DNA from: Thermoanaerobaculia bacterium
GTDB lineage: Bacteria > Acidobacteriota > Thermoanaerobaculia > UBA5066
DNA: 64,000 bases
Assembly: GCA_963816185.1 (NCBI GenBank)
Contig: CAWFJJ010000005.1
Coordinates: forward strand, 96,001-160,000
Direction of reading: 5' to 3'
Of this stretch, positions 40,715 through 64,000 are shown in pieces; the stretch's first letter is position 1, and each line of letters starts with the position of its first letter. A program made the position numbers and the translations under genes. The notes under the pieces are model-generated. The model had not been told where the DNA came from. It searched no databases and saw only the letters and a list, made by a program, of their open reading frames with translations.

Positions 40715-40802
40715 ATCTTGCAGCGCTCCCCGGTTGCTGCCGCTGAGGCGCATACTCGGGTCAAACACCTCCGGACATTCAGGCAGTTTTCGCGGAGCGC
40801 CG

Positions 40803-43571
40803 ATGTCTCTCGAGCCGGGCACGCGCATCGGTCCCTTCGAGGTCCTCGCCCTCCTCGGGGCGGGAGGGATGGGTGAGGTCTACCGAGCGAGAGATCCTCG
40901 CCTCGGACGCGACGTCGCGGTAAAGGTGCTGCCGGAAGGATTCTTTGAAGGTGAAGAGAGGAGGCAGCGATTCGAGAGGGAAGCGAAGCTGCTGGCCTCG
41001 CTGAGCCACCCGAACATCGCGGCGATCTACTCATTCGAGGAAATCCCCTCTTCGTCGTCTTCGACGCGCCATCTTCTCGTCATGGAGCTCGTCGAGGGCG
41101 AGGGACTCGACCAGAAGATCGCATCCGGTCCTCTTCCGCTCGAAGAGTCTCTCTCGTACGCCGAGCAAATCGCCGAGGCCCTCGAGGCCGCGCACGAAAG
41201 GGGGATCGTGCACCGGGATCTCAAGCCAGCGAACGTCGCCATCTCGACCGAAGGCAAGGTCAAGCTCCTGGACTTCGGTCTCGCAAAGGCCTTCGAGCGC
41301 GACCCCTCGTCGGCGGAGCTTTCGCAGTCGCCGACACTCACGGCTCGAGGCACGGCCGCGGGCGTCGTACTCGGGACCGCGGCATACATGTCGCCGGAGC
41401 AGGCGCGTGGCCGGCCGCTCGACAGGCGGTCCGACATCTTCTCCTTCGGATGTCTTCTCTACGAGTGTCTCGCGGGCCGAAGGGCGTTCGGGGGCCAGAC
41501 GACCTCGGACATGATGGCGGCCGTCCTGACGGCAGAGCCCGACTGGTCGTCGCTCCGTGCAAACACCTCGCCGCGTCTGGCCGCCCTGCTCCGGCGCTGC
41601 CTGCAGAAGGATCCGGCACGGCGGCTTCGCGACATCGGCGATGCGCGCCTGGAGATCGAGGAGATCCGGTCGGAGGGATCCGCGCCGTTCCGGAGGGCCG
41701 GCTCGGTCGCCGGCGGGGGCGGTCCCGCTGCCGCAAGGCCGCGCGCGCCTCTCGTGTGGGGACTCGCCGGTCTCGTCGCCGGGGCACTCATCGTTCTGGC
41801 CGGCGTGAAGCTCGCGGGCCGTGCGGGAACCCCGTCTGTCGTCCCCTCGATACGCGCCGTCCTACCCCTCCCGGAGGGAAGCAGGATCTGGTTCGGGTTG
41901 TACCCCACCGTCGCGCTTTCGCCGGACGGTACGACGGCCGTTTTTCGGGCCAGCGATGCGGGCGTCGGACGCCTGTACCGGCGCCGGCTGGCCGGGGGAG
42001 AGGCGGAGCCGATTCCGGGCACGGAGGGGGGATGGGGGCCGTTCTTCTCTCCCGACGGCGAGTGGATCGGTTTTGCCACGCTGACGGAGCTGAAGAAGGT
42101 GCCGATGTCGGGCGGAGCGCCGAGCCGGATCGTCGAGCTTCCACCGGTTTCTCACGGGGCGACCTGGATATCCGACGGCTCGGTCGTCGTGGCCCGCGGG
42201 AACAACAACGGTCTCTACCGGATCGCTTCGTCCGGAGGTCCTCTCGAGCTTTTCCTCCCGCTTGATGCGGCTCGCGGCGAGCACGCGCTCCTCTGGCCGC
42301 AGGCGCTTCCTCGCGGCCGGGGCGTTCTCGCCACGATCGTCCGAGGCGAGGACTTCCAGGACATTCCGAGCGCCGAGGCGGCGGTCATCGAGCCCGCCAC
42401 CGGAAGACGCCATGTCCTGATCGAGGGAAGCACGTTCGCTCGTGTGGTGCCTCCCGGCTGGCTCGTCTTCGTGCGGGGCGGTTCGGTGTTCGCGGTCCGG
42501 CTCGATCTCTCGCACCTCCGGATCGAGGGAACTCCCGTCGCCGTCCGCGAACCCTTCGCCGTGGGCGCCTCGGCGGGCACGGCCAGCTTCGACGTCACGA
42601 ACGACGGAACGCTCGTCTTCGTCGAGGGGGGCCTCGTCCCGGAAGCCGTGACGTCCGTCGTTCTTCTCGACCGCGCGGGGCGCGAAACCATCCTGCCCCT
42701 CCCTCCGGGCGAGTACGACGACCCGGTCTTTTCGCCCGACGGCCGCCGCATCGCCGTGCAGAGGTGCGTCCTCATGTCTTGCAAGCTCCATGTCTTCGAC
42801 CGCGATCGCGGGGTCCTCTCGCCCCTCGCAACGGAGCCCGGTCGCTTCTTCGCTCCGGTCTGGTCGCCCGACGGCCGGCAGGTCGCCTTCTCGCACCTGA
42901 TGTCGAACGAGCCGCGAGCCGCGGTGCGGGCCGCCGACGGCAGCGGAGCCATCAGGCCGTTCCCGACGAAGGGCGACGACGCCGAGTTTCCGAACTCGTG
43001 GTCGCCGGACAACCGGTACCTTCTTTACACGGTCGCCTACGACACCGACCGGGGCGAGCTGCGCCGGCGAGGGACGTCCGACCTCTGGCTCCTCCCGCTG
43101 GACGGCTCGGGCCCGGCGCGCCCCTGGTTCGAGAGCCCGGCGCGTGAGGGCTCGGCCGCGATCTCGCCCGATGGGCGGTGGGCGGCGTACGTATCCAACG
43201 AAACGGGGCGCTTCGAGGTCTACGTCCGGCCGTTCCCGGAGGGAATGTCGAAGTTGAAGATCTCGCAGGATGGCGGGATCGAGCCGGCCTGGACGCGGAG
43301 CGGACGCGAGGTCGTGTACCGGGACCGCGATCGCTTCCTCGCCGCGGAGTTCCGTCCCGGCGCGGAGGCCACCGCGGGGACGCCCAAGCTGCTCTTCTCC
43401 GCGCATGTCGCCTCGGGCGGCGGCCGGACGGACACGCCGCGGAACTACGACGTCACGCGGGGGGGCGAGGAGTTCGTCGCGGTCCGGCCGGAGCGCCCCG
43501 AGAAGAAAGAAAACCGGCTCGCGATCGTGACACGTTGGAGCGCTGGTCTCGAGCAGTCCGCCCGAAAGTAA
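40803..43571 (+). CDS. Hanks-type Ser/Thr kinase with TM helix and TolB/PD40 beta-propellers
   Basis: GAGGMGEVY, HRDLKPAN, DFGLAK, YMSPEQ; repeated (F/W)SPDG. Confidence 0.95.
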   Translation: MSLEPGTRIGPFEVLALLGAGGMGEVYRARDPRLGRDVAVKVLPEGFFEGEERRQRFEREAKLLASLSHPNIAAIYSFEEIPSSSSSTRHLLVMELVEGEGLDQKIASGPLPLEESLSYAEQIAEALEAAHERGIVHRDLKPANVAISTEGKVKLLDFGLAKAFERDPSSAELSQSPTLTARGTAAGVVLGTAAYMSPEQARGRPLDRRSDIFSFGCLLYECLAGRRAFGGQTTSDMMAAVLTAEPDWSSLRANTSPRLAALLRRCLQKDPARRLRDIGDARLEIEEIRSEGSAPFRRAGSVAGGGGPAAARPRAPLVWGLAGLVAGALIVLAGVKLAGRAGTPSVVPSIRAVLPLPEGSRIWFGLYPTVALSPDGTTAVFRASDAGVGRLYRRRLAGGEAEPIPGTEGGWGPFFSPDGEWIGFATLTELKKVPMSGGAPSRIVELPPVSHGATWISDGSVVVARGNNNGLYRIASSGGPLELFLPLDAARGEHALLWPQALPRGRGVLATIVRGEDFQDIPSAEAAVIEPATGRRHVLIEGSTFARVVPPGWLVFVRGGSVFAVRLDLSHLRIEGTPVAVREPFAVGASAGTASFDVTNDGTLVFVEGGLVPEAVTSVVLLDRAGRETILPLPPGEYDDPVFSPDGRRIAVQRCVLMSCKLHVFDRDRGVLSPLATEPGRFFAPVWSPDGRQVAFSHLMSNEPRAAVRAADGSGAIRPFPTKGDDAEFPNSWSPDNRYLLYTVAYDTDRGELRRRGTSDLWLLPLDGSGPARPWFESPAREGSAAISPDGRWAAYVSNETGRFEVYVRPFPEGMSKLKISQDGGIEPAWTRSGREVVYRDRDRFLAAEFRPGAEATAGTPKLLFSAHVASGGGRTDTPRNYDVTRGGEEFVAVRPERPEKKENRLAIVTRWSAGLEQSARK

Positions 43572-48052: not shown

Positions 48053-51000
48053 ATGATGCGACAGAGTCGCAAGAGGTCGTCTTGGCCCATTCTGGCAATG
48101 CTGTTGGGAGTCCTCGCGGCATCGCCTGTCAGCGCTCAGTCCTACCAGGTTCTTCATGCCTTCAGCCCCTCTCCGACGAGCCCGCGGACACCGCTCGTGC
48201 AGGGAACCGACGGCAACTTCTACGGGACGACGTCCGACGCGGAGGAGGGCGGCAGCGGCTCGATCTTCAGGATAACGACCGCCGGAGCGGTGACCACGCT
48301 GTACCGCTTCTCAGGGCCGGACGGAACCGCGCCGAACGGCCTCGTCCAGGCTAGCGACGGCAACTTCTATGGAACGACTGCCGGGGGAGGCGCGAACGGC
48401 GGCGGAACGGTCTTCAGGCTGACCCCGATCGGCGCACTGACGACCCTCTACTTCTTCTCCGGCGGCGACGGGTACCATCCGGTCGCCGGTCTGATTCAGG
48501 GGAGCGACGGCAATCTGTACGGGACGACATCCGCCGGCGGTCTCAATGAACAGGGAATCGCGTTCCGGGTTTCACTCTCCGGTGTTTTGACGAGACTCCA
48601 CGACTTCTCGGGAGCGGATGGGGCGTTTCCAAACAGCCTCGTTCAGGGAACCGACGGGTACCTCTACGGGACGACGTCGCTGGGAGGAAGCGGGGACTGC
48701 GGCACCGTCTTTCGGATGACCGCGGCTGGCGCCGTGACGAGCCTCTACTCGTTCTCGTTGCCCCCGCATTACGGCACGATCGGCCCCTCCGATCTCGTTC
48801 AGGGGAGCGACGGCGATTTCTACGGAACGACCTCGGGAGGGGGAGGCGGCGGCGTCGGAATGGTCTACAAGATAACGCCGGCCGGGGCGGTGACGACGCT
48901 GGATTCCTTCTACGCCGGAGGTCCGGAGTATCCGAGCGGCATCATCGTGGGTGCGGACGGGGCGTTCTACGGGACCTCGACGTCGGGCGGCGAAAACGGC
49001 GTCGGGGTGGTCTTCAGGATGAGCCCCTCGGGAGACGTCACGACGTTGTTCTCTTTCTCAGGAGGCGACGGTGGTACGCCCGGTGCGCGCCTTGTCCAGG
49101 GGAACGACGGCAACCTTTACGGAACGACCTCGTCGGGCGGCACGGCCTTCGACGGAACGGTCTTCAGGATCACCCTATCCGGGGTTTTGACCTCGCTCTT
49201 CTCCTTCACGAACGGCGAGGGGTCCGGGCCTTCTGCCGGCCTCGTGCAAGCGAGCGACGGGAGTTTTTACGGCACGACTTTCCGGGGCGGCGTGTTCGGA
49301 TACGGCACCGTTTTCAGTTTGGCTCCGTCAGGCACGTTCGCGACCGTGCACTCGTTTCTGGGTGATGACGGGGCCGGGTCATTCGCCGTCCTCGTGGAGG
49401 GGAGCGCGGGCAATCTGTACGGAACGACACGCGACGGCGGCACGACGGGTTGGGGGACGCTGTTCTCCGTGACGACCGGGGGGGTCCTCTCGAGCCTCCA
49501 TTCCTTTTCGGTCGGCGATGGGTCCGACCCTGTCTCGGGTCTCGCTCAGGGGTCAGACGGGAATTTCTACGGCACCACGTACGACGGCGGCGGAACCAAC
49601 CGGGGCACCGTCTTCCGGATGACGCCCGGAGGAGCAGTCACGACGCTGTACTCCTTCTCGGGAAACGACGGCTCGAATCCGAGTACGAGCCTTGTCCCGG
49701 GGAACGACGGAAACTTCTACGGCACGACGCTCTTCGGCGGTGCGGGCTACGGGACCATTTTCCGGATCACCCCCGCTGGAGGCCTGACGACGCTTCAAGC
49801 GTTCTCAGGAACGAACTCGGCGTTTCCGAACGGTCTCACCTTGGGCCGCGACGGGAACTTCTACGGAACGACCAGGGGACAGTTTTCCCCAGGCTGCGAG
49901 ATCTTCAGGATGACCCCTTCCGGGACCCTCACGACGCTTTATGTGTTTCCGGCGAGCTTCGCTGTCGATTGTCCCGCTGGCCCTCTCCTGCAAGGTGCGA
50001 ACGGAGATTTCTTCGGGACGACGTACGGCGGCGGCACCAACTCTGAGGGGAGCATCTTCGAGATGACCCCGGCGGGGAGCCTGACCACGTTGTACTCGTT
50101 CTTCGGGCCCGAGGGCTCGAGCCCGCTTGCGCCCTTGGCCCAGGGAGCCGACGGTGACCTCTACGGGGCGACGAACCTCGGCGGGCCATCGAACATCGGC
50201 GTCATCTTCCGCTTCAATCCATCGGGACCGCCGACTCCTCAGGCGGTCGTGAGCGGCGGTGGGTCCATCTGTCCGGGACGCTCGACCAGCGTCCAGGCAG
50301 CGCTGACGGGCACTGCACCGTGGAGCCTGACCTGGTCCGACGGGTTCACCCAGACCGGGATCACGGCATCTCCGGCGAGCCGCACAGTGTCTCCCCAATC
50401 GACGATCGTCTACACGCTGTCCGCCATCTCGGATGCGAACGGCCCGGGTCTTTCGTCCGGGTCGGCGACGGTGCTTGTCACACAACCGCTCTCGGCAGTG
50501 ATGATCTCGCCCACGACGCCGGTCCTTCTGTGCGCCGGGTCGTCGGGAACCTCCGCCTCCCTCAACGCGGTTTCCGTCGGAGGGGGAACATCCACCTATC
50601 AGTGGGGCTATCGCACCGTTTCCGGGGGCGCCATCACGCCGATTCAGGGGCTGGTCGGCTACTACGCGTATTTCGGAGGAACCTCTTTCCCGGGACCGGG
50701 TAACTACCTGATGGTTGTAACCGCGACTCCGTCCTGCGGCAGCCCGATGGTCTCGAACGAAGTCCCGGTCACGGTCGTACCGGCTCTCGACAACCCAATC
50801 ATCACGGCTCCTGCCTGGGTCGCGCCGGGCGCCGCGAACCTGACGGCCTCGGTCGCTGCGCAGGCGGGCGTGAGTTATAGCTGGATGATGAGCAATGGAT
50901 TCATCACGGGCGGCGGCGGCACCAATCAGATCACGTTCACCGCGGGCACTACCGGAACCGTGACCCTCTCTGTCGCGGAGTACACGTCAGCATGCTCGAC

Positions 51001-51400
51001 CCCGTGGGTCAACGCGACGATACCAATTACCTCGCCAACCTCCTTCTATACGGCTACCCCTTGCCGCCAGCTCGACACGCGAACCGGCGGCACACCCATC
51101 GCGGCGGGAGGAACGCTGACCGTCCCGCTTGCCGGGGCGCCCTGTTCGATCCCCTCGACCGTGAGGTCCGTCTCGGTCAACGTGACCGTCACCCAGCAGA
51201 CCGCGACGGGAGACCTGACGATTTACCCTGCGGACCAGGGTCAACCGGGCACGACGACCCTCAGCTTCTCGCCGGGCAGGACACGCGCGAACAACGCCAT
51301 CCTCCTTCTCTCGTCGGACGGGCTGGGAGACGTGACGATCTTCAACAACTCGCTCGGGCAGGTTCACCTCATCATCGACGTGAACGGCTACTTCCAGTGA
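48053..51400 (+). CDS. Secreted tandem-repeat (GloVer-type, choice-of-anchor) protein with Ig-like domains
   Basis: Signal peptide; 14 copies of an ~50-aa LVQGxDGNFYGTT..GG..GTVFR repeat; C-terminal PCRxLDTR...IIDVNGYFQ domain. Confidence 0.88.
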   Translation: MMRQSRKRSSWPILAMLLGVLAASPVSAQSYQVLHAFSPSPTSPRTPLVQGTDGNFYGTTSDAEEGGSGSIFRITTAGAVTTLYRFSGPDGTAPNGLVQASDGNFYGTTAGGGANGGGTVFRLTPIGALTTLYFFSGGDGYHPVAGLIQGSDGNLYGTTSAGGLNEQGIAFRVSLSGVLTRLHDFSGADGAFPNSLVQGTDGYLYGTTSLGGSGDCGTVFRMTAAGAVTSLYSFSLPPHYGTIGPSDLVQGSDGDFYGTTSGGGGGGVGMVYKITPAGAVTTLDSFYAGGPEYPSGIIVGADGAFYGTSTSGGENGVGVVFRMSPSGDVTTLFSFSGGDGGTPGARLVQGNDGNLYGTTSSGGTAFDGTVFRITLSGVLTSLFSFTNGEGSGPSAGLVQASDGSFYGTTFRGGVFGYGTVFSLAPSGTFATVHSFLGDDGAGSFAVLVEGSAGNLYGTTRDGGTTGWGTLFSVTTGGVLSSLHSFSVGDGSDPVSGLAQGSDGNFYGTTYDGGGTNRGTVFRMTPGGAVTTLYSFSGNDGSNPSTSLVPGNDGNFYGTTLFGGAGYGTIFRITPAGGLTTLQAFSGTNSAFPNGLTLGRDGNFYGTTRGQFSPGCEIFRMTPSGTLTTLYVFPASFAVDCPAGPLLQGANGDFFGTTYGGGTNSEGSIFEMTPAGSLTTLYSFFGPEGSSPLAPLAQGADGDLYGATNLGGPSNIGVIFRFNPSGPPTPQAVVSGGGSICPGRSTSVQAALTGTAPWSLTWSDGFTQTGITASPASRTVSPQSTIVYTLSAISDANGPGLSSGSATVLVTQPLSAVMISPTTPVLLCAGSSGTSASLNAVSVGGGTSTYQWGYRTVSGGAITPIQGLVGYYAYFGGTSFPGPGNYLMVVTATPSCGSPMVSNEVPVTVVPALDNPIITAPAWVAPGAANLTASVAAQAGVSYSWMMSNGFITGGGGTNQITFTAGTTGTVTLSVAEYTSACSTPWVNATIPITSPTSFYTATPCRQLDTRTGGTPIAAGGTLTVPLAGAPCSIPSTVRSVSVNVTVTQQTATGDLTIYPADQGQPGTTTLSFSPGRTRANNAILLLSSDGLGDVTIFNNSLGQVHLIIDVNGYFQ

Positions 51401-52088: not shown

Positions 52089-52574
52089 TCAGTTCTTGAA
52101 GGGGACCTGGATGACGATCCAGGTCTTCACCTTGTGACCGTCCTTCGTGGCGGGTTTCCAGCGCCACTGCTCGAGCGCGCTCTTGCTCGCGTCGCCGAGA
52201 CCCACCTTCGGAGCCGTGTCGCGCAGGACATCCACCTTCTCGGGCGTGCCGCTCGCGTCCACGAGGACGCGCAGGAGGACGGTCCCGGAGACGTGAGCCC
52301 GAATCGCGATGCTCGTCGCCTGGGGAGCCACCTGTTTCTGGGCCACCGGGGGCGTGTCGAGGAGCTCCGTATCCACGAAGTCGCCGTCCTTCGTGTCGGA
52401 CGTCGGCGCCACGGCCGAGGCGGCCGAAGACGCAGCGGCGCCCGGCTTTGTCGCCGCCGTCTTTCCTGGATCTGGAGCGGCCTCACATACGAATGCGGCG
52501 GCGAAGAACACGGGAAGAACGCCCGCGATGCAGCGCACGGCGAGGGAGTCAGCGAGCAGGATCTTGTTTCGCAC
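52089..52574 (-). CDS. TonB C-terminal domain protein (start uncertain)
   Basis: GTVLLRVLVDASG...ALEQWRWKPATKDG..VKTW..I.VPF. Confidence 0.8.
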   Translation of the reverse strand: MRNKILLADSLAVRCIAGVLPVFFAAAFVCEAAPDPGKTAATKPGAAASSAASAVAPTSDTKDGDFVDTELLDTPPVAQKQVAPQATSIAIRAHVSGTVLLRVLVDASGTPEKVDVLRDTAPKVGLGDASKSALEQWRWKPATKDGHKVKTWIVIQVPFKN

Positions 52575-52731: not shown

Positions 52732-52764
52732 TGTCGGAAATTCCGGCTGCCGGAGAATCAGACA
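52732..52764. promoter_or_regulatory. Tandem imperfect palindromes, candidate enhancer (UAS) for a sigma54 activator
   Basis: TGTCGGAAATTCCGGCT and TGCCGGAGAATCAGACA, consensus TGTCGGA-N3-TCCGACA. Confidence 0.5.
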
Positions 52765-52910
52765 GCGAGTCCCCCTCCTTCGACATTAGTAAGTCTGCTC
52801 GGACCCAACGGCTCGGCACGTCCGCCGTCCGTTTCCGTTCCGTGACACGGATGAGCGGATCCGGTAACGTGTCGATGAGGTTTCGTGCGGGCGCTTGGGC
52901 CGGGGCGGAG

Positions 52911-52926
52911 CGGTATCGACCTTGCG
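52911..52926 (+). promoter_or_regulatory. Candidate sigma54 (-24/-12) promoter
   Basis: CGGTATCGACCTTGCG = GG-N10-GC with TTGC, just upstream of SD AGGAG and ATG 52949. Confidence 0.55.
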
Positions 52927-52948
52927 TCCGGGGGGGTAGGAGCCACGC

Positions 52949-53782
52949 ATGCCGATCGTCACCGTTTCCCGTGGAACCATGAGCGGCGGGACCGCTCTCG
53001 CAGAGTGCGCGGCGAAGGCGTTGGGATCCCCTTGTCTCGCCCGCGAGGTCCTCGTGTCCGCTGCGACCGCGCTGGGAGTGTCCGAGCAGTTCCTCAAGGA
53101 GAGGATCGAGCGTGCGCCTGGCCTCTGGGAGCGCCTCGGAGCCGAGCGAAAGACGTATGTCCTCGCGGTTCAGGCGGCCCTCGCCGAGCACGTGGCAAAA
53201 GGGGACGCCGTCTACCACGGGCTCGCCGGACATCTCCTCCTGAGGGACATCCCGCAGGTGATTCGTCTTCGTCTCATCGCGCCGCTCGAGACCAGGGTCC
53301 GCGCCCTCATGGAGCAGCGCGGGATGACGCGTGACGGGGCGGAGAAGTTCATCGCCCAGGTCGACCAGCAGCGAGCGCGGTGGACCCGTCTCATGTACAA
53401 CGCCGACATCGAGGATCCGCGGCTCTACGACCTCGTGATCAACCTCGACAAGACGTCTCTCGAATCCGCCTGCGCCGTCGTCGTGACGATGGCGCGGCGG
53501 CCCGAGTTCACGATCGACGACGCGGCGCGCGCCGGGATCGCGGATTTCGCTCTCGCGTGCAAGGTCCGCCTGGCCCTCGCCGTTCAGCCGGCCAGCCGGG
53601 GTCTCGAGCTGGAGGTGACCTCTCGATCGGGCGTCGTGACTCTTGCCGGGAAGGTCCCCAAGCCAGACATGCTGACTCACGCGAGCGACCGGTGGATCGG
53701 CGAGCTGCGAAAGGTGGTGGAAGAGGTCCCCGGAGTCAAGAAAGTCGTCCTCGACGTCAACCTCGTCAGCGCATACACCTGA
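52949..53782 (+). CDS. Cytidylate kinase-like family protein with C-terminal BON domain
   Basis: IVTVSRGTMSGG (P-loop lacking Lys), RLIAPLETRV, YDLVIN; BON-like GVVTLAG...VPGVKKV. Confidence 0.85.
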   Translation: MPIVTVSRGTMSGGTALAECAAKALGSPCLAREVLVSAATALGVSEQFLKERIERAPGLWERLGAERKTYVLAVQAALAEHVAKGDAVYHGLAGHLLLRDIPQVIRLRLIAPLETRVRALMEQRGMTRDGAEKFIAQVDQQRARWTRLMYNADIEDPRLYDLVINLDKTSLESACAVVVTMARRPEFTIDDAARAGIADFALACKVRLALAVQPASRGLELEVTSRSGVVTLAGKVPKPDMLTHASDRWIGELRKVVEEVPGVKKVVLDVNLVSAYT

Positions 53783-53796
53783 AGGAGGAACCCGAT

Positions 53797-53985
53797 ATGG
53801 ACTTCCTCGGCTGGCTGCAGGATCTCGGGAAGGACGCGAGCCCGGCGCCGGGATTCCAGGCGCGGCCGCTCTATCTCCTCGTCTCGGTCGCGCTCCCCGT
53901 GACGCTGGGCCTTTTCGTGGGCTTTTCCCTGAGGCTCGTCGAGCGGCTCCTCGGAGTGGAGCTCGGCAAGCGAGCGGGTCACTGA
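53797..53985 (+). CDS. Small (62 aa) single-TM protein
   Basis: Strong SD AAGGAGG, ATG 53797, one hydrophobic helix, stop overlaps the next ATG; hidden at the end of track ORF 53380-53985. Confidence 0.75.
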   Translation: MDFLGWLQDLGKDASPAPGFQARPLYLLVSVALPVTLGLFVGFSLRLVERLLGVELGKRAGH

Positions 53986-54920
53986 TGGATGCCGGCAGCT
54001 TCTCGCTGGGCGCGCACTCCTTTCCGTTTCTCGCTCTCTTCGGCCTCGTGATCGGCGGGCTCGGCGGGTTCTTCGGGGTGGGCGGCGGCTTCCTCATGGT
54101 CCCGATGCTCAACGTCGTCTTCGGCGTTCCGTACAACATCGCCGTCGGGTCGGACCTGGGCCAGATGTGCGGAATGTCCGCCGCCGCGACGGTCCGCCAC
54201 TCGCGGTTTGGCAACATCGACTTCAAGCTCGGCTTCCTGATGATCGTGGGAACCGCAACCGGGGTCGAGCTCGGCGCCCAGGTGCTGGAGGTCCTCAAGA
54301 AGGTCGGCACCCTCTCGGTCTTCGGGCGCGAGATCGACGTGCTGACCGTCGTGATGAGCCTCGTCTACGCGCTCCTCCTCGTGTTTCTCGGTCAGGCGAT
54401 GGTGCGCGAGTCGCTGCGCACGATGCGGCGCGCCGCGGGGCAGGTGCAGCTCGGCGCCGAGGAGCCGGCGCCTTCCGCGGTCGTGAGGCTCCGGACCCTG
54501 AAGCTCTGGCCGATGGTGAGCCTGCCCGCGTCGGGAATCGAGTCGATCTCGCTTTGGATCATCCTCGGCATCGGCTTCGCCACCGGCTTCCTCTCCGGCA
54601 TGCTGGGAGTGGGCGGAGGCTTCATTCGGATGCCGGCGCTCGTCTACATCCTCGGCTGTCCGACCGTCGTGGCGGTCGGGACAGACCTGTTCGAGATCAT
54701 GTTCAGCTCCGGCTACGGCGTCCTGACGCATGCCTTCAAAGGAAACGTGCACCTCGTGCTCGTTCTCGCGCTCCTGATCGGAACCACGGTGGGCGCCCAG
54801 CTCGGGGCCTCGTATACGCGCCGGGCCGGTGGCCCCTGGGTCCGCTTCGGGTTCGGCTGTCTCGCCTTCGTGGGCGTGATCATGGTCGCCATCAAGCTCT
54901 ACGCGAAACTCCTCCGTTAA
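53985..54920 (+). CDS. TSUP (TauE/SafE) family transporter
   Basis: Duplicated GFFGVGGGF..P / GMLGVGGGF..P and AVG(S/T)DL motifs. Confidence 0.93.
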   Translation: MDAGSFSLGAHSFPFLALFGLVIGGLGGFFGVGGGFLMVPMLNVVFGVPYNIAVGSDLGQMCGMSAAATVRHSRFGNIDFKLGFLMIVGTATGVELGAQVLEVLKKVGTLSVFGREIDVLTVVMSLVYALLLVFLGQAMVRESLRTMRRAAGQVQLGAEEPAPSAVVRLRTLKLWPMVSLPASGIESISLWIILGIGFATGFLSGMLGVGGGFIRMPALVYILGCPTVVAVGTDLFEIMFSSGYGVLTHAFKGNVHLVLVLALLIGTTVGAQLGASYTRRAGGPWVRFGFGCLAFVGVIMVAIKLYAKLLR

Positions 54921-54924
54921 GACC

Positions 54925-57498
54925 GTGAGCGGGTTCTGGCCCCGCATCGCCCGCCATCTCACGCCGCGAGGGCGCCGTCTGCTCCCTTCCTCCGCGGCGG
55001 AGAGGTTTACATGCTTGAGGGCGATCGGAGCCGCCAACGACACGTTCCTTTCCGAGCTCGCGCGATGCCAGGAGGCCGCAGAGGGAGAAGCCCCTCTCAG
55101 CCTCGGAGCCGTCGCCGACGCCTACGAGGCCCTCTCGGCCCCTGTCGGCACGATGGTGCGCGCCCTGATGGCCATGAGCGCCGGGCGATATGCCGACCTC
55201 GGCCCGCGCCACGAGGCGCTCGATCGAGAGCTGGCTTTGGAGGCTTTCCAGGCCCGCCCAGTCCAGTTCGGCCCGCTCGTCGTCTGGTCGAACGACCCCG
55301 AAGCTTGCCAACCCAGCGTCGCGGGACCCAAGGCCGCGCGCCTCGCGCAGCTCGTCGCAACCGGCGAGTTCGACATTCCCCCTTTCTTCGCCGTCACCGC
55401 GCACGGCTTCCGCCTCTTCATGGAGGCGAGCGGGGTCCAGGACGTCGTGAACGAGGCCCGCGCGACGACGGACTTGAACGACGCCGCGAGTCTCTCGCGC
55501 TTCTCGGACCGCGCCTTCGCCGCCGTTCTCGCCGCGCCTTTGCCGGCGTCCCTCGAGCGCGAGATCGAGAAAGCCATGCGCGCAATCGGCGAGGAGATCG
55601 GCGGCGAGGTCCGGGTGGCGGTCCGCTCCTCGGCCGTGGTCGAGGACACCACGTCGTCCTTCGCGGGCCAGTTCGAGTCGGTTCTCAACGTTCCTCCGGC
55701 CGGCGTCGCCGCCGCCTACCGGCACGTGATCGCCAGCAAGTTCCAGGTCGAGGCTCTTCGGTACGCCCTCGCGCGCGGCTTCGTCGACGAGCAGGTGACG
55801 ATGCCGGTCCTGTTCATGGCGATGATCATGCCCAAATCGAGCGGCATTGCCTACTCCCGGAACCCCGGCAGCCCGTGGTGCGCCACGATCACGGCAGTTC
55901 CGGGCCTCGCCCAAACGATCGCGGATGGCCGGGGGATCCCCGATGTCTACCAGGTCGTCGACGCGGAGCCGCCCCGCATCGAGGAAGTGGTTCCGGGCTC
56001 GCGGCCGCCGACTCTTCTTTGCGCCGCCGAAGGAGGCCTCGAGGAAGAGCCGGAAGATCGCGGCGCCGGGGCGAGGCTCGCCCTGGACGAGGAGGAAGCG
56101 TGCCGCGTCGCGCGACTCGCCTGGAGCCTGGAGAGACGCTTCGGGGAGCCCCAGGACGTGGAGTGGGCTCTCGACCAATCCGGTCGCCTCTACGTCGTGC
56201 AGACCCGTTCGCTCCGTCTCCCCGCCTCCGTGCCCAGCGGCGAACGAGATCCGATCCCGGCGGGATACCGGGTGCTCATGCGCGGCGGCTCGCGGGCCAG
56301 CGGCGGCGTTGCCGCCGGGCCGGTCGTCAAGCTGGCCGATTCCACCGCTCCGGGGGAGGTCCCCGACGGCTGCATCCTGCTCGTCCCCACGACGTCCCCG
56401 CGCCTGGCAGCCGTCATGGGCTCGGTGGCGGGCGTGATCGCGGGCACGGGAAGCGCGACGGGTCACATGGCGACCGTCGCGCGGGAGTTTGGCGTGCCTT
56501 GCCTCGTGGGAGCCGGAGCTTCCGTCGCGGCGCTCTCCGAAGGGGAGATCGTGACCCTGGATGCCGACGCCAGGATGGTCTTCGAGGGTGTGGTTGCGGA
56601 ACGGATTCGAAAAGAGCCGAGGGGGGCAGCGCCTCGTCGCCGCGACCCGGTCCGCGAGAACGTTCTCCGACTCCTGGGGCGTGTCGCGCCCCTCACCCTG
56701 ACGAACCCGGAGGCGCCCTCCTTCGACCCGGAGCACTGCGTCACCCTCCACGACGTGGCGCGTTTCGTCCACCAGCGCGCGATGGCCGAGATGTTCGCCG
56801 TCGAGGCGCTCACGCCGGCCGAGAGGCGCGCGTGCCGGAGGCTGAGCTGGCCCCGGCCCATGGAGATCCTCGTGCTCGACCTCGGGGGCGCGGTCTCCCG
56901 GGCGGGCCGCACGGTCTCGCTCGAGGCCCTGACCTCGGTGCCGTTCTCGGCCCTCCTGGAAGGGATGATGGACTCGCGGCTGCGGTGGGCCGGACCCGTC
57001 GGGTTCGACCTCAAAGGATTCGTCTCCGTAGTCGTCCGGAGCGCCGCCGACGATCAGCGCTACGGTGAACCAAGCTACGCGCTTTGCTCGGCCGATTACG
57101 TCCACTTCGCGTCCCGCCTCGCGTACCACTTCGCGACCGTGGAGGCCATCTGCGGGGCGTCGCCGAACGAGAACTACGTCCGCTTCCGCTTTCAAGGAGG
57201 CGCGGCCGTGGCGGAGCGGCGCGAATGGCGCGCGAGCTTCCTCGCTTGCGTCCTCAAGGTCAACGGGTTCACCGTGCGCCAGGTGGGCGACCGGGTGGAT
57301 GCGATCCTCCCCAAGCGGCCGAGGGAAGAGCTCGAAGACGCCCTCGTCATGCTGGGGCGGCTGATGGTGGCCTCACGCCATCTCGACATGGTCATCGAAA
57401 GTCCGGCGGTCGCCGCCGCGCTCTCGCAAGCGTTCCTGACGGGCGACTACAGTTTCGAGAAGGTGCGCCGCGAATCCCAGGGGAGATGGCCTTCTTGA
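54925..57498 (+). CDS. PEP-synthase-like dikinase A (ATP-grasp + phospho-His swivel + non-canonical C-terminal domain)
   Basis: GPKAARL, AVRSSAVVED..SFAGQF, PQDVEWA, VQTRSL, GSATGHMATVAREFGVP; no pyruvate-binding TIM barrel. Confidence 0.85.
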   Translation: MSGFWPRIARHLTPRGRRLLPSSAAERFTCLRAIGAANDTFLSELARCQEAAEGEAPLSLGAVADAYEALSAPVGTMVRALMAMSAGRYADLGPRHEALDRELALEAFQARPVQFGPLVVWSNDPEACQPSVAGPKAARLAQLVATGEFDIPPFFAVTAHGFRLFMEASGVQDVVNEARATTDLNDAASLSRFSDRAFAAVLAAPLPASLEREIEKAMRAIGEEIGGEVRVAVRSSAVVEDTTSSFAGQFESVLNVPPAGVAAAYRHVIASKFQVEALRYALARGFVDEQVTMPVLFMAMIMPKSSGIAYSRNPGSPWCATITAVPGLAQTIADGRGIPDVYQVVDAEPPRIEEVVPGSRPPTLLCAAEGGLEEEPEDRGAGARLALDEEEACRVARLAWSLERRFGEPQDVEWALDQSGRLYVVQTRSLRLPASVPSGERDPIPAGYRVLMRGGSRASGGVAAGPVVKLADSTAPGEVPDGCILLVPTTSPRLAAVMGSVAGVIAGTGSATGHMATVAREFGVPCLVGAGASVAALSEGEIVTLDADARMVFEGVVAERIRKEPRGAAPRRRDPVRENVLRLLGRVAPLTLTNPEAPSFDPEHCVTLHDVARFVHQRAMAEMFAVEALTPAERRACRRLSWPRPMEILVLDLGGAVSRAGRTVSLEALTSVPFSALLEGMMDSRLRWAGPVGFDLKGFVSVVVRSAADDQRYGEPSYALCSADYVHFASRLAYHFATVEAICGASPNENYVRFRFQGGAAVAERREWRASFLACVLKVNGFTVRQVGDRVDAILPKRPREELEDALVMLGRLMVASRHLDMVIESPAVAAALSQAFLTGDYSFEKVRRESQGRWPS

Positions 57499-60062
57499 GG
57501 TCGATCTTCAACCTCGGGTCCGGCTCTCCCGGTGAGCTCCTCCGCCGCAAGTACACGAGCTTCCGGCGCCTTCTCGCGACGAACAACGAGATCCTCGAGC
57601 GGATCGCGGACCTCGAGGGAACCCTGGCCGCCGACCAGCCGATCCCCAACGACGAGCTCCTCGCGATCGCCCAGGCCGTCCGGGAGCGTGCCCTCCTGAT
57701 CGTGGAGGATCTCGACGTCATCGCCGAGGGCCGCTATCGCTCCCTGCGGGGGAACGTGGAGCGGATTGCCGCGGGGATCGAAGAGGCGCTCCGAAGCGTA
57801 CAGGGAACCCCGGTGACCGCCGCCTGCCTTCCGCTGGAGGGGCTGGATCGGCGGATGGCCGACGTCGTGGGGGGAAAGACCGCCAACCTCGGAGAGGTTC
57901 GCAACGTCGTCGGGTTGCCTGTTCCTCCTGGCTTCGCGATCACCGCCTTTGCATACCGGTCGTTCGTCTCCGGAGCGGGGATTCAGGAGCGCCTCACCGA
58001 GCTCTGGCGCGGTGTGGACTGGGATGACCTCCGGAACGTCCACAGGGCCGCCGACCAGATGCAGGCGCTCGTCCTCGGAGCCGAGATCCCGCAGGACGTG
58101 CGGGAGTCGATCACTCTTTCGGCACACGACCTCTATCGGCTCTCGTCGGGGCGTCCACGCGTCTCGATGCGCTCCTCCGCGATCGGCGAGGACAGCCGTA
58201 CCTCTTTCGCCGGCCAGTACGCGAGCTTCCTCAACGTCCCCCTCGAGCAGGTTCTCCGCCGCTACAAGGAGACCGTGGCGAGCAAGTTCGGCGCCCGGGC
58301 GCTCTTCTACATGCACTCGAAGGGGCTTCGCGAGGGCGAGATCGCGATGAGCGTGGGCTGCTTTCTGATGATCGAGGCGCGCGCTGCCGGCGTCGGGTAC
58401 ACCGTCGACCCGAACGACCCCGACCGGGACATGATGACGGTCGCGGCCGTGTGGGGCCTCGGCAGGCCCGTCGTGGACGGTACGATGACGCCCGACGTCT
58501 ACCTCGTGCCCCGAAGCTCGCGGAGCGGCGCGGTGCAGCGGCAGGTCGTCGTCAAGCCGCGCCGGATCGTCTGCGGCCCCGACGAGGGAGTCGTGGAAGA
58601 GGACGTGCCGCCGGAGCTGCAGGATCGCCCCTGCCTCGACGACGCGCAGCTCGATCGGCTGGCCGGATACATGCGGGCCCTGGAGGCCCACTACCGCACC
58701 CCTCAGGACGTGGAGTGGGTCCTCGACATGCACGGCCGCTTGTTCATCGTCCAGACGCGCCCTCTCGCTCTCCCCGAGAGTCCGGCGCCCAGGCTTCCCA
58801 ATTCCCCGGAAGTAAATCGCGACTGCTTGCTCTTTTTCAAGGGGGCGACCGCATGCCCCGGGGTCGGCGTGGGACCGGTCGTCCACGCCGAAAGCGACGA
58901 GGAGCTCTCGCAGTTCCCGCTCGGAGGCGTCCTCGTCGCGAGCCAGAATTCGCCCCGATTCGTCAACGTCATGACGCGCGCGGCGGCCATCGTCACCGAC
59001 GTCGGAAGCGTCACAGGGCACATGGCGTCGCTGGCGAGAGAATACGGCGTCCCGACCCTGTGTAACGTCGGCGAGGCGACCCGGCTCCCGCCGGGGTTGG
59101 AAGTGACGGTAGACGCCACGGCCGGCGCCGTCTACAGGGGACGCGTCGAGGAGCTCGTCTCGCGGGGGCGCGTCCAGAGACGGACCCTCAGGAACCTCCC
59201 CTCGGCCGCCGTCCAGGAGCGCGTGACGGCGCGGATCGCACACCTGAACCTGACCGACCCCTCGAAGAACTCGTTTCGGGCCAAGAACTGCACGACGTAT
59301 CACGACGTCGTCCGGTTCTGCCATGAGATGGCAATTTCCGAGATGTTCCACGTCAACGATTACTCGGAGCTCCGCGAGCGGGGGATGGCGTTCCGGCTCG
59401 AGACGGACGTCCCGCTGGGGATCTACGTCATCGACCTCGGAGACGGGCTCACGGCTCCGCCGGGGGCGCGCGGCATCACCCCGGCCCAGATCGTCTCGGT
59501 CCCGATGCGCGCGCTCTGGCGCGGCATCACGGCGCGCGGCGTCCGGTGGGCCGGCGCGCGGCCCATCGACGTGGGAGGCTTCCTTTCCGCCATGGCCAGC
59601 ACCGTCGCGGACGGTGCGCGGGGCGAGCGGGGGCTCGGGGACAACTCGTACGCGATGGTGGGAGCGAACTACGTCAACTTCGGATCGCGCCTCGGCTATC
59701 ACTTCACGACGCTGGAGGCGGTCTGCGGAGAAAGCGTCCATGAGAACTACATCGTCTTTCGCTTCAAAGGGGGAGCCGCCGAGCTCCAGAGGCGCGAGCG
59801 CCGGGTCCGCTTCATCGCGGACGTCCTGTCCCACTACGGCTTCGAGGTGGACCGCCGCCGGGATCTCCTCAATGCCTGGGTGAAGAAGCTCGATCGCCCG
59901 GCCATCGAGACACGCCTCGAGGTCCTCGGGCGCCTGATGGGTTGCGTCCGCCAGCTCGACGTCCTGATGCACGCGGAGACCTCCGTCGGTCAGTGCGTCG
60001 AGGCGTTCCTCGCGGGCCGCTTCGAATTCTTCGACTTCGAAAAGGGCGGCCCGGGCCCATGA
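57486..60062 (+). CDS. PEP-synthase-like dikinase B (paralog of A)
   Basis: VGGKTANLGE, MRSSAIGED..SFAGQY, PQDVEW, VQTRPL, GSVTGHMASLAREYGVP; same C-terminal domain; ATG 57486. Confidence 0.87.
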   Translation: MAFLRSIFNLGSGSPGELLRRKYTSFRRLLATNNEILERIADLEGTLAADQPIPNDELLAIAQAVRERALLIVEDLDVIAEGRYRSLRGNVERIAAGIEEALRSVQGTPVTAACLPLEGLDRRMADVVGGKTANLGEVRNVVGLPVPPGFAITAFAYRSFVSGAGIQERLTELWRGVDWDDLRNVHRAADQMQALVLGAEIPQDVRESITLSAHDLYRLSSGRPRVSMRSSAIGEDSRTSFAGQYASFLNVPLEQVLRRYKETVASKFGARALFYMHSKGLREGEIAMSVGCFLMIEARAAGVGYTVDPNDPDRDMMTVAAVWGLGRPVVDGTMTPDVYLVPRSSRSGAVQRQVVVKPRRIVCGPDEGVVEEDVPPELQDRPCLDDAQLDRLAGYMRALEAHYRTPQDVEWVLDMHGRLFIVQTRPLALPESPAPRLPNSPEVNRDCLLFFKGATACPGVGVGPVVHAESDEELSQFPLGGVLVASQNSPRFVNVMTRAAAIVTDVGSVTGHMASLAREYGVPTLCNVGEATRLPPGLEVTVDATAGAVYRGRVEELVSRGRVQRRTLRNLPSAAVQERVTARIAHLNLTDPSKNSFRAKNCTTYHDVVRFCHEMAISEMFHVNDYSELRERGMAFRLETDVPLGIYVIDLGDGLTAPPGARGITPAQIVSVPMRALWRGITARGVRWAGARPIDVGGFLSAMASTVADGARGERGLGDNSYAMVGANYVNFGSRLGYHFTTLEAVCGESVHENYIVFRFKGGAAELQRRERRVRFIADVLSHYGFEVDRRRDLLNAWVKKLDRPAIETRLEVLGRLMGCVRQLDVLMHAETSVGQCVEAFLAGRFEFFDFEKGGPGP

Positions 60063-60093
60063 ATCGGCCGGCCCGGGGCCGGAAAGCTCTCTG

Positions 60094-60131
60094 AAAAGAA
60101 GGGAGCCCCGCCGAAACCGGCCGGGGCTCCC
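60094..60131 (-). terminator. Rho-independent terminator for hppA (between convergent operons)
   Basis: GGGAGCCCCG/CGGGGCTCCC stem followed by TTCTTTT on the minus strand. Confidence 0.8.
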
Positions 60132-60167
60132 GAGGATCTCTGCTCTTCTTCTCGAGCCGGTGCCGGA

Positions 60168-62408
<2,241 letters not shown>

Positions 62409-62493
62409 AACACTGTCTCTCCTCTCCTCATTCGAACTGGTGGTGTCTGTACCGTGTCACGAACCGGGCGGGTATGGCAATGGTGCGGCTCAA

Positions 62494-63291
62494 TCAGTGT
62501 CCCCCGCGTCCAAAAAGAGTACCCGCGAGCCATCCTGCCGCCACTGCGATGAGCACGGTGAAAGCACCATAGACGAGCGGGCGTCGCTCCGCGAGCCGTG
62601 ACACCCAATCGACCACGCCCTTCTTGCGCACGAAGAGATTGCTGGTCTGAACGCCCAGCATCCGATCGTCGCCGAGAAACGAGGTGGTGACCTGGTATCG
62701 GCCGTCCGGAGCGCAGGCGGGGAGGCTGAACACGTGGTAGAAGGCGCCCCGATCGTTGAGGCGGATCCCGTTGGGCCGGACGCCGTAGAGACCGCGCTGG
62801 CCCTGCAGGTCCCAGAATCCCTCCAACACCCGGCCGCTCTCGCCCTCGTGCATCGGCCCCGAGAGGCTCGAGAGACGGGCGTGCGCGATCAGCGTCTCGC
62901 GACCGGCGGCGAGGTCGAAGGGGGCGAGGAGTCGATTGCTCGCCTCGAGATCATCGGCAGGCAGGCACGGGGCGAAGCCGTTGCACAGGGGGGAGCTCAC
63001 GTTCACGAGGTAGAGCCCCGGCACACCCGAAAGGCGGTATTGACGGACGCCCAGCCAGAACAACGCGACCCGCCCCTTCTCCATGAGACGGACGACGCCG
63101 GCCGAGGGCCCCTCCAGCACGGCCAGCACGCGCCGAGTCCCGGCCGGCGCGGTCCCGTGCAGGAAGAGGTCCAGGCCCGAGAAGGAGTAGGAAACCTCCA
63201 CGCGCTCCACGTCCGATTGCGGGACGACCGCCGAGACCGGGACGGAGACCTCCGGTCTGTTCAGGACGGCGAAGAGGAGGAATGCCAGCAA
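62494..63291 (-). CDS. TIGR02186-like membrane-anchored partner of TSUP transporters
   Basis: FSG..LFLHG, KGRVALFW, F.LP..APDG.YQV, C-terminal TM helix; directly follows a TSUP gene. Confidence 0.75.
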   Translation of the reverse strand: MLAFLLFAVLNRPEVSVPVSAVVPQSDVERVEVSYSFSGLDLFLHGTAPAGTRRVLAVLEGPSAGVVRLMEKGRVALFWLGVRQYRLSGVPGLYLVNVSSPLCNGFAPCLPADDLEASNRLLAPFDLAAGRETLIAHARLSSLSGPMHEGESGRVLEGFWDLQGQRGLYGVRPNGIRLNDRGAFYHVFSLPACAPDGRYQVTTSFLGDDRMLGVQTSNLFVRKKGVVDWVSRLAERRPLVYGAFTVLIAVAAGWLAGTLFGRGGH

Positions 63292-63292
63292 G

Positions 63293-64000
63293 TCAGTGTC
63301 CGCCGCCCGCCCTGGCGAAGTCGATGAGCTGCGCCGGCGGAATGAGGAGCTGTACGAGGAGGATGGCCATCACCACGAGCACGATGAGCGCGAGGAACAC
63401 CCGAATCTGCTCGCCGCGGAGGCGGCGGCTGGCCGCCACGCCGAACTGGGCGCCGATGACGGATCCGGCGAAGAGCGCGACCGCAAGCATGACGTCCACC
63501 GTTTGGTTGGTCAACGACTGCTGCAGTGTCACGTTGGCCGAGGTCAGCACGATCTGGAAAAGGTCCGTCCCCACCGCGACGCGCGTGGGGATGCCGATGA
63601 TGTAGATCATCGTCGGAAGCATGATGAAGCCGCCCCCGACTCCCAGGAAGGCGGCGAGCAGGCCCACGAGGACGCCTGCGCCGACGGGAAGGAGGACCGA
63701 CGTGCGGAGTCCCGACTTCGGGAAATGGACCTGCAGCGGCAGGCGGGAGAACAAAACCGTGAGCGTGCCGCCCGAGGGTTCGCCCGCTCGGGATCGGCCC
63801 CGCCATGCGCGCAAGCCCTCGCGCAGCATGCCGAGGCCGATGAACCCGAGCACGAGGACGTAGACGAGCTTGAGGAAGAAGTCGAAGTTCCCGAGGTTGC
63901 GGAGAACCTTCACGAGATGGACCCCGGCGAACCCGCCGGCCCAGCCCCCGCAGACGATGAACAGCCCCATCTTGAAGTCCACGTTTCCCAGGCGAGAGTG
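63293..64000 (-). CDS. TSUP (TauE/SafE) family transporter (5' end outside the window)
   Basis: HSRLGNVDFKMG, AFLGVGGGFIMLP, AVGTDLFQI. Confidence 0.92.
   Translation of the reverse strand, partial: HSRLGNVDFKMGLFIVCGGWAGGFAGVHLVKVLRNLGNFDFFLKLVYVLVLGFIGLGMLREGLRAWRGRSRAGEPSGGTLTVLFSRLPLQVHFPKSGLRTSVLLPVGAGVLVGLLAAFLGVGGGFIMLPTMIYIIGIPTRVAVGTDLFQIVLTSANVTLQQSLTNQTVDVMLAVALFAGSVIGAQFGVAASRRLRGEQIRVFLALIVLVVMAILLVQLLIPPAQLIDFARAGGGH

Follow-up and report, generated by a model that had tools for sequence, protein, structure and literature searches.

The closest described counterpart of the gene system treated here is a poorly annotated cluster of Desulfovibrio vulgaris and Desulfovibrio alaskensis, the 'nitrate cluster' (DVU0251-DVU0245 / Dde_0597-Dde_0605; Korte et al. 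2014, PMC4001038). The cluster encodes a TauE permease, a hypothetical protein, a PtxB-like binding protein, a PAS/HAMP kinase, a receiver, a protein with PPDK ATP-grasp and mobile domains, and a DSP phosphatase. Transposon insertions in the permease, receiver and dikinase genes conferred resistance to 100-150 mM nitrate and not to nitrite, an insertion in the gene of the hypothetical protein DVU0250 was nitrate-resistant as an isolated mutant, one in the binding-protein gene gave high fitness in pooled screens, and the phosphatase mutant was still nitrate-sensitive in D. vulgaris (PMC4001038). The authors suggested a leaky thiosulfate transporter as the route of nitrate entry, and mentioned unpublished mild thiosulfate defects (PMC4001038). 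In a proteome of Dissulfuribacter thermophilus (2026, PMC13490349), an adjacent 'PEP synthase', 'TM protein co-occurring with TauE' and TauE were increased in thiosulfate disproportionation, where we take the 'PEP synthase' by its annotation name and not as a confirmed member of the family described below. TSUPs have been discussed as unproven candidate sulfate carriers, for sulfate or sulfite, in sulfate reducers (Marietou et al. 2018, PMC5840216). Here we describe the gene content, domain architecture, conservation and dsr/apr/sat linkage of a module of two TSUP permeases and two dikinases in a 64,000-nucleotide stretch of a Thermoanaerobaculia bacterium (assembly GCA_963816185.1, contig CAWFJJ010000005.1, here C5, positions 96001-160000; hereafter the window), and we propose with moderate confidence that it is a sensor-controlled sulfur-oxyanion uptake module of dissimilatory sulfate reduction, in which the dikinases would serve as an ATP-driven switch.

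Open reading frame (ORF) listing and Pfam and NCBIfam scans of the window proteins gave eight genes in two convergent operons, five on the + strand and three on the - strand. The + operon encodes a CMK-like/BON protein (277 aa, 52949-53782; PF13189 Cytidylate_kin2, 9e-35), a single-pass membrane protein with one transmembrane (TM) segment (62 aa, 53797-53985), the permease TSUP1 (311 aa, 53985-54920; PF01925 TauE, 2e-41) and the dikinases DikA (857 aa, 54925-57498; PPDK_N 1.3e-59, PEP-utilizers mobile domain 5e-18) and DikB (858 aa, 57486-60062; PPDK_N 1.6e-86, PEP-utilizers mobile domain 1.7e-17). The junctions in this order are a 14-nt gap, a 1-nt overlap, a 4-nt gap and a 13-nt overlap of the dikA end with dikB, the gene of the 62-aa protein being translationally coupled to that of TSUP1. 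The - operon encodes TSUP2 (63293-64000 within the window), which is the TSUP part of a cytochrome c-TSUP fusion, a membrane-anchored accessory protein of PF09608 (Alph_Pro_TM, TIGR02186-like; 265 aa, 62494-63291, 1.2e-40) and the membrane-integral pyrophosphatase HppA (746 aa, 60168-62408; PF03030, 853 bits), with a 1-nt gap between the first two genes and an 85-nt gap before hppA. The two operons end at convergent stop codons separated by 105 nt (60063-60167), which hold a G+C-rich hairpin (RNA fold -56.2 kcal/mol, z = -2.1), and a scan for consensus intrinsic terminators between the operons found none. The first-pass annotation of this DNA had described these eight genes, their domains and two convergent, mostly tightly coupled operons, and the Pfam and NCBIfam scans bear this out; it set the start of the region at 52732, where the first gene begins at 52949 instead, and the TSUP2 gene is not complete in the window but runs beyond its end and is cytochrome-fused.

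The module flanks a complete set of genes for dissimilatory sulfate reduction. The dsrA gene was found at C5:179871-181025 (573 bits vs a cut-off of 393), and dsrMKOP-N-L-BA, aprBA, qmoABC and sat stand 8-35 kb from the window. Dikinases of the same family number four in this genome, in three modules including that of the window (module 1), and between modules 1 and 2 are the genes of a sirohaem synthase, dsrMK(J)OP-like, dsrN-like and dsrL-like genes, dsrB, dsrA, aprBA, fused qmoAB, qmoC and sat; the dsrMK(J)OP-like genes were named from their domain content, and DsrJ was not identified among them. The fused frame (L102:8175-11435 (+) = C5:188175-191435) is a single one of 1086 aa with Pyr_redox_2 and FlpD parts and resembles a fused QmoA-QmoB. 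Module 2 (C5:196-212 kb, L083) holds genes of receivers, PAS and HAMP kinases, a CMK-like protein, TauE, a 405-aa protein, a dikinase and DUF2270, and module 3 (C28:344-360 kb, L084) has the order histidine kinase (HK)-TauE-PF09608-dikinase-REC on one strand and sigma-54 activator-CMK-like/BON on the other; both paralogous modules have a stand-alone receiver next to the dikinase. There are nine TauE genes in the genome, four of them within the three dikinase modules.

A scan of one genome per species for the dikinase confirmed 590 stretches, of which the best 80 were analysed and annotated with tblastn and local hidden Markov models (HMMs) built from the window proteins and their matches, which can miss distant members. 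Genes of the sat/apr/qmo/dsr set occur in the flanks of 14/80 loci. Nine loci from Ignavibacteria, Kryptonia and Bacteroidota have the dikinase, then a qmoC-like gene, and then aprAB, sat and qmoAB as far as the locus reaches. Two loci (L054, L062) carry qmoAB-qmoC-sat-CMKBON-TSUP-dikinase-TSUP-PF09608, all on one strand; dsrOP-like genes stand ahead of the module in L035, dsrMK and sat were found in L056, and L026 has a qmoC-like gene only. We also profiled the phylum in one evenly drawn sample of 201 genomes, counting the dikinase domain at E<=1e-10 and dsrA over its cut-off. The dikinase was found in 17/201 genomes and dsrA in 25/201, all 17 dikinase-positive genomes were also dsrA-positive (17/17), and none of the 176 dsrA-negative genomes had the dikinase (0/176). 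The 17 genomes belong to six families, with 12 of 17 in one family, and in 8/17 the dikinase gene and dsrA are on one contig, ~10-25 kb apart. The pattern is one-sided and repeated, though relatedness inflates the counts. Two genomes of the genus to which the window belongs (G098 and G157), both 99% complete, have neither dsrA nor the dikinase family, so that the whole island of sulfur respiration, flanking modules included, seems to vary within the genus.

The gene neighbourhoods of the 80 loci place the dikinases in the company of permeases and of two-component signalling genes. Within 6 kb of a family dikinase we found a stand-alone receiver in 51/80 loci (27 within 400 bp), an HK core in 45/80, a TSUP in 39/80, a second dikinase in 28/80, a CMK-like/BON gene in 20/80, a PF09608-like gene in 13/80, the 62-aa TM protein in 12/80 and hppA in 3/80, and no partner at all in 18/80, 11 of these 18 being shorter than 12 kb. 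The co-occurrence of the dikinase C-terminal domain with TSUP, Cytidylate_kin2/BON and PF09608, which the first-pass annotation had named as a check, holds across several phyla. The five-gene + operon is syntenic in 11 Acidobacteriota loci. In three relatives (L009-L011), the convergent PF09608 and cytochrome-TSUP genes come right after dikB, and there is no hppA; in four others (L006-L008, L012), orthologues of an HK and a sigma-54 response regulator encoded beside the window (70-82% identical) stand just upstream of the CMK-like/BON gene. This synteny indicates that the two-component system forms a unit with both operons of the window and that hppA is an addition to it. A receiver gene follows dikB in L003, and a receiver stands beside the dikinase in the close relatives L003-L005. 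Loci of the Ignavibacteria type have three to five TSUPs with an HK, a REC protein and a dikinase, and those of Desulfobacterota typically have a dCache-HK, a REC protein and a dikinase (Pfam check, 12 loci).

The two-component system itself lies past base 64000, where the first-pass annotation had advised looking for a sensor kinase and a sigma-54 activator, and both were found directly there. Three further genes lie upstream of the cytochrome-TSUP gene and on its strand. The encoded response regulator combines REC, sigma-54 AAA+ and HTH_8 domains, the histidine kinase contains sCache_3_2, HAMP, HisKA and HATPase_c domains, and the third protein is a periplasmic binding protein of the PhnD type (Phosphonate-bd, 1.4e-50). 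A sigma-54-like -24/-12 element, TGGGACTTGCTTTGCC, precedes the cytochrome-TSUP fusion gene, and similar elements precede its orthologues in L009-L011; these sites match at 9-10/12 positions, against 15 sites of >=10 on both strands of the 316-kb contig. For the + operon, the only candidate was a poor one under the threshold (CGGTATCGACCTTGCG, 52911-52926).

The locus thus has, as the nitrate cluster has, TauE (here twice), a PhnD-like binding protein and a HAMP histidine kinase together. Similar clusters in Desulfobacterota, mentioned in the first-pass annotation as lacking an assigned function, do exist, and one has the published genetic phenotype described above (PMC4001038). Profile searches with the dikinase C-terminal domain gave 4, 7 and 9 matches in three Desulfovibrionales genomes, and one Desulfovibrionales locus (L100) encodes a Phosphonate-bd protein, an sCache/HAMP/PAS kinase, a 118-aa receiver, a family dikinase (E 1e-75) and a DSP phosphatase. 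Since this gene order is that of the published cluster, DVU0246 very probably belongs to the same C-domain family. By analogy with the Desulfovibrio genetics, the permease, the receiver and the dikinase would act in one process in which all are needed. We also docked the receiver and the dikinase of module 3: the score was 0.38 (runs 0.38, 0.37 and 0.39) against 0.00 for the best of three controls, with >=95% of contacts in agreement and a partner pLDDT of >=81. The mark used is reached by 116/157 solved complexes and 2/215 mismatched pairs, and at scores <=0.60 only by 18/157 solved complexes and by both passing mismatches; we used alignments of our own, so that these calibration counts hold only roughly.

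DikA and DikB have the same four parts, namely an N-terminal helical domain, an ATP-grasp domain, a phospho-His swivel domain and a new C-terminal domain of ~300 aa (C-domain). The helical extension of ~115 aa has no Pfam match at E<=10. The His motifs are ATGHMATVAR in DikA and VTGHMASLAR in DikB, and K133, R230-S232, E236, E411, Q424, R426 and the catalytic H515 are invariant in 61 full-length sequences, including all four paralogues of this genome. PEP_synth models scored 220-335 bits against cut-offs of 598-740 and aligned only to their positions ~4-490 of 784-798, RPH and PigC models scored 120-217 bits against cut-offs of 999-1350, and the match to TIGR01417 (PTS Enzyme I) was marginal (E 8e-5, 21 bits). 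No Pfam family, the PEP-utilizers_C barrel included, matched the last ~310 residues of DikA or DikB at E<=10. The AF2 model of the DikB C-domain (pLDDT 82.5, pTM 0.74) is an alpha/beta sandwich for which the best Foldseek match in the PDB had an E of 0.07, a wide structural search (VIA) gave at best Z 6.4 with an rmsd of 3.5 over 95 residues, within the tool's stated noise, a profile search of PDB sequences gave a best E of 0.053, and a search of the ESM Atlas returned only the domain's own family. The first-pass annotation had rightly set these enzymes apart from ordinary PEP synthases, as the missing barrel and the scores below cut-off indicate, and had called them orphans, which they are not: the C-domains of DikA and DikB are homologous (38% identity), and the genome has four such genes in the three modules.

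Twelve C-domain residues are invariant among 69 members (C58, H62, D63, R66, H69, G136, H195, G218, G219, R229, G271 and D281), and the polar, basic set among them is of a kind suited to an active site or a binding site. When 1.84 billion representatives were searched with a profile, 1,606 proteins of the family were found at E<=0.001 and 823 at E<=1e-30, corresponding to ~1,600 clusters at 50% identity; relatives are labelled 'pyruvate, water dikinase' in public sources, and our literature search found no paper describing the family beyond Korte et al. 2014. On long contigs, shorter forms were found with the His domain and C-domain (350-440 aa), with the C-domain alone (~285-300 aa) and with the N-terminal helical region and C-domain (~400-409 aa), and such split forms fit a role of the C-domain as the acceptor half of the reaction. 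The 405-aa protein of module 2 (L083:8987-10204 (+) = C5:204987-206204), which has no Pfam match and is encoded directly upstream of the dikinase there, matches the N-terminal helical domain of the dikinases. Two Desulfovibrionales variants of 737-801 aa (L097:1229-3445 (-), L099:7301-9706 (+)) consist of the N-terminal helical domain, the first half of the ATP-grasp domain and the C-domain, with no mobile His domain detected, and their genes are preceded by those of REC, TauE and an unassigned 241-266-aa protein. A deltaproteobacterial dikinase gene (L022:5622-8161 (-)) that has neither a TSUP nor a receiver in its vicinity is oriented divergently to two GlgC-like nucleotidyl transferase genes and is followed by genes of Gate-domain membrane proteins, a metallophosphoesterase and a HIT protein.

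Taking these data together, we propose the following mechanism, in which the substrate, the direction of transport, the phosphate acceptor and the roles of the CMK-like/BON and PF09608 proteins are what we would infer from gene content and context. The TSUPs would import a sulfur oxyanion (sulfate, thiosulfate or sulfite) for the sat-apr-qmo-dsr pathway encoded 8-35 kb downstream, one TSUP working with the 62-aa TM protein and the other, fused to a six-haem cytochrome c, being paired with the PF09608 protein. The external oxyanion may be sensed by the periplasmic PhnD-like binding protein and the sCache/HAMP histidine kinase, and the signal would pass to the sigma-54 response regulator at the window locus and to the stand-alone receiver in most relatives. 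DikA and DikB would transfer a phosphoryl group from ATP through the swivelling His to an acceptor held by the Cys/His/Arg-rich C-domain, and this step, to judge from the nitrate cluster, would be needed for permease function and would use ATP to switch transport on or to energise it. The CMK-like/BON protein could be a pseudokinase with a nucleotide or anion as its ligand and a regulatory role at the membrane, and hppA would be in the locus because ATP sulfurylase makes pyrophosphate. The first-pass annotation had left the substrate as an 'unknown anion or organic acid', which we narrow to a sulfur oxyanion of dissimilatory sulfate reduction; the phosphorylation of the transported anion that it also considered is less probable.

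Several points weigh against this uptake module. The phenotype in Desulfovibrio is nitrate sensitivity, and the link with thiosulfate consists of unpublished remarks (PMC4001038) and one proteome (PMC13490349). The nitrate cluster is known from its genetic phenotype and the window module from its genes, and DVU0246 is placed in the family by gene order. TauE-type proteins (TauE/SafE) are best known as exporters (PMC5840216, PMC3949148). The window locus has no stand-alone receiver, the regulator there being a REC, sigma-54 AAA and HTH_8 protein, and no DSPc match was found among the ORFs scanned at window positions 52000-72000. The docking lends weak support to a possible receiver-dikinase interaction, and does so for the paralogous module. 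The 80 loci are the best-scoring ones and include close relatives, so that their counts are not independent. Four of the loci (L014, L015, L022 and L081) are full-length and yet have no partner genes near the dikinase, which indicates that the enzyme is not tied to a permease everywhere, and 8/25 dsrA-positive genomes of the phylum sample have no dikinase, which is therefore not essential for the pathway.

The alternative that survives best, which we nevertheless regard as unlikely, is that the dikinases are receiver-controlled enzymes of sulfur respiration which do not act on transport, the permeases being merely co-regulated. They might then act on a pathway enzyme, a cofactor or a storage compound, or run in reverse and recycle the AMP of APS reductase with the pyrophosphate (PPi) of Sat. 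Stand-alone receivers (51/80) and histidine kinases (45/80) do outnumber TSUPs (39/80) around the dikinases, lone dikinases occur, Desulfovibrionales genomes have 4-9 copies, and the association with dsrA is strict. However, permease, receiver and dikinase mutants shared one phenotype in two Desulfovibrio species (PMC4001038), and compact TSUP-PF09608-dikinase operons occur, as in the HK-TauE-PF09608-dikinase-REC order of this genome.

A second alternative, somewhat less probable and the main idea of the first-pass annotation, is group translocation or trapping, in which the dikinases phosphorylate the entering anion and release AMP with Pi or PPi, and HppA recycles the PPi. An anionic substrate would be suited by the invariant C58, H62, D63, R66, H69, H195, R229 and D281, the split forms with His domain and C-domain resemble dikinases with an acceptor-binding last domain, and the dikinase module stands directly after sat in L054 and L062 and beside hppA here. 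However, many members of the family have an HK and REC but no permease in their vicinity, and the DSP phosphatase mutant behaved oppositely to the dikinase mutant in D. vulgaris (PMC4001038), which suits a reversible switch better than a metabolic intermediate. The linkage of hppA to the dikinases, on which the first-pass annotation had relied for the recycling of PPi, is not supported, as hppA is near the dikinase in only 3/80 loci and the closest syntenic relatives (L009-L011) lack it. In the three loci it lies between a qmoC-like gene and aprA, which fits pyrophosphate coming from ATP sulfurylase. HppA (NCBIfam NF001953, 1017 bits vs a cut-off of 783; a model named sodium-translocating) more likely serves the pyrophosphate of Sat than that of the dikinases, and hppA has been counted with sat in the sulfate activation of dsr-bearing Acidobacteria (Hausmann et al. 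2018, PMC6018796). The boldest form of this alternative is that the phospho-His passes its phosphate to the sulfur oxyanion in the Cys/His/Arg pocket of the C-domain, so that TSUP uptake would be an ATP-driven group translocation that feeds or by-passes ATP sulfurylase and is gated by the receivers and a CMK-like/BON sensor; we consider this a long shot. We know of no phospho-sulfur-oxyanion metabolite.

The permeases raise the question of direction. TSUP1 (142.7 bits) and TSUP2 (148.8 bits for the full ORF) are well above the PF01925 gathering score of 32.6, and TSUP1 orthologues in the syntenic Acidobacteriota loci are 78-93% identical. The first-pass annotation had called the two TSUPs close relatives by the motifs HSR.GN.DFK.G and AVGTDLF; both motifs are present in both proteins, but the identity of 35% over 274 aa is moderate rather than close. 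The TSUP2 gene extends to the window equivalent of ~64855-64957, and its N-terminal domain has six CXXCH haem-binding motifs; the full ORF (L001:11293-12957) matches TauE (2.6e-43) and Cytochrome_C7 / Cytochrom_c3_2. The protein encoded next to it scored 140.2 bits against a Pfam cut-off of 24.5 for PF09608 and 67.3 bits against 255.25 for the TIGR02186 model, and is thus, as judged from these scores, a PF09608 member outside the alphaproteobacterial TIGR02186 equivalog, for which our literature search found no paper. Its gene adjoins a TSUP gene in each of the 13 loci in which it was detected, except L075, where the locus ends. Proteins of 497-2000 aa were searched with a 15-sequence PF09608 alignment for fusions of PF09608 to a dikinase, and none turned up, which is weak evidence that there are none. 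That the TSUPs are exporters of sulfite or another toxic product, and the module a stress-controlled efflux system, would agree with the family name and with the published TauE/SafE roles mentioned above, and sensor control suits a stress response. We think this improbable, since loss of the permease led to resistance to external nitrate, explained by the authors as blocked entry (PMC4001038), the periplasmic binding protein and the Cache sensor point to an outside signal, and the module can stand directly after sat, the gene of the first enzyme to act on imported sulfate. Finally, that DikA and DikB are ordinary PEP synthases for gluconeogenesis, to which the best NCBIfam names and the public label would point, can be dismissed on account of the missing barrel, an alignment that ends at ~490 of ~790 with scores below the cut-offs, and the different C-terminal fold.

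The CMK-like/BON protein folds like an NMP kinase and ends in a BON-like domain (AF2 pLDDT 85.4). The PDB entries that match it best, 3fdi and 3hdt, are uncharacterised, and CoaE, CMP, shikimate, APS and adenylate kinases come next. The TIGR02173 CMP kinase model scored 28.7 bits against a cut-off of 102.1, and the P-loop is degenerate (SRGTMSGGT), with Thr at the position of the Walker Lys, which among 26 CMK-like homologues varies between K, R, Q, T, E and M. The BON domain scored 26.9 bits against a gathering score of 27 (E 6e-6), and that of the paralogue in L084 scored 34 bits. On contig C25 of the same genome (L085:6848-8967 (-)), a CMK-like paralogue without a BON match is encoded beside an unrelated ArsP_1 predicted permease and a DsbD_TM protein, which suggests that the CMK-like family accompanies permeases more generally. 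As there is no conserved Walker Lys and this paralogue stands beside ArsP_1, it is more likely that the CMK-like/BON protein senses a ligand and regulates membrane transport than that it is a kinase. The 62-aa TM protein has no Pfam match, and its gene is kept between those of CMK-like/BON and TSUP in 12/80 loci. Upstream in the window, a 1115-aa ORF (48053-51400 (+)) with no Pfam family at E<=1e-5 stands before a TonB_C gene (52089-52574 (-)), and 40734-43571 (+) encodes a 945-aa Ser/Thr protein kinase with C-terminal PD40 beta-propeller repeats, which is unrelated to the present finding.

The uptake of sulfate, thiosulfate and sulfite and its regulation are still unsettled in sulfate reducers, and a widespread but unstudied gene set of sulfate-respiring bacteria offers here a lead on how a respiratory substrate may be taken up. 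The TSUP-accessory-dikinase module is tied to dsr/apr/sat in several phyla, strictly so within the Acidobacteriota sample, and its link to a phenotype-bearing cluster in two genetically tractable Desulfovibrio strains makes the question directly testable. The dikinase family may also be a new kind of output for two-component signalling.

Compared with known systems, DikA and DikB share with PEP synthase (PpsA) and PPDK the N-terminal ATP-grasp and the central swivelling phospho-His with conserved nucleotide-binding residues, but an unrelated alpha/beta domain replaces the PEP/pyruvate TIM barrel, a helical N-terminal extension is added, and the family cut-offs are missed. In rifampicin phosphotransferase, PigC/RedH, phenylphosphate synthase and plant glucan water dikinase, an ATP-grasp and His cassette is joined to a family-specific acceptor domain, split-subunit forms exist among these relatives with other acceptors, and the plant glucan water dikinase goes with the DSP phosphatases SEX4/LSF2. 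In L100 and in the Desulfovibrio cluster, too, a DSP-type phosphatase accompanies a dikinase, whereas the C-domain has no sequence or fold similarity to any solved structure. PTS Enzyme I likewise couples a phosphoryl donor to transport through a relay by a phospho-His mobile domain of the same Pfam family, but the donor of the dikinases would be ATP, through ATP-grasp, and not PEP, and no HPr or EII proteins are present. TauE, SafE, TsaS and Corynebacterium CysZ are PF01925 members like TSUP1 and TSUP2; the excerpts of PMC5840216 mention no dikinase, CMK-like/BON protein or fused multihaem cytochrome for any of the TSUPs described there. The nitrate cluster is the nearest of all, with TauE, a small hypothetical protein, a PtxB/PhnD-like binding protein, a HAMP kinase, a receiver domain and a barrel-less PPDK-type protein, and the window system is a variant of its type. 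Unlike that cluster, the window locus has a sigma-54 regulator in place of the stand-alone receiver, an adjacent hppA and no DSP phosphatase, and the second TSUP, fused to the six-haem cytochrome, has a PF09608 partner. New here are the tandem dikinases, the CMK-like/BON and 62-aa proteins, the cytochrome-fused TSUP, the sigma-54 control and the place of the module at the flank of a complete dsr-apr-qmo-sat island.

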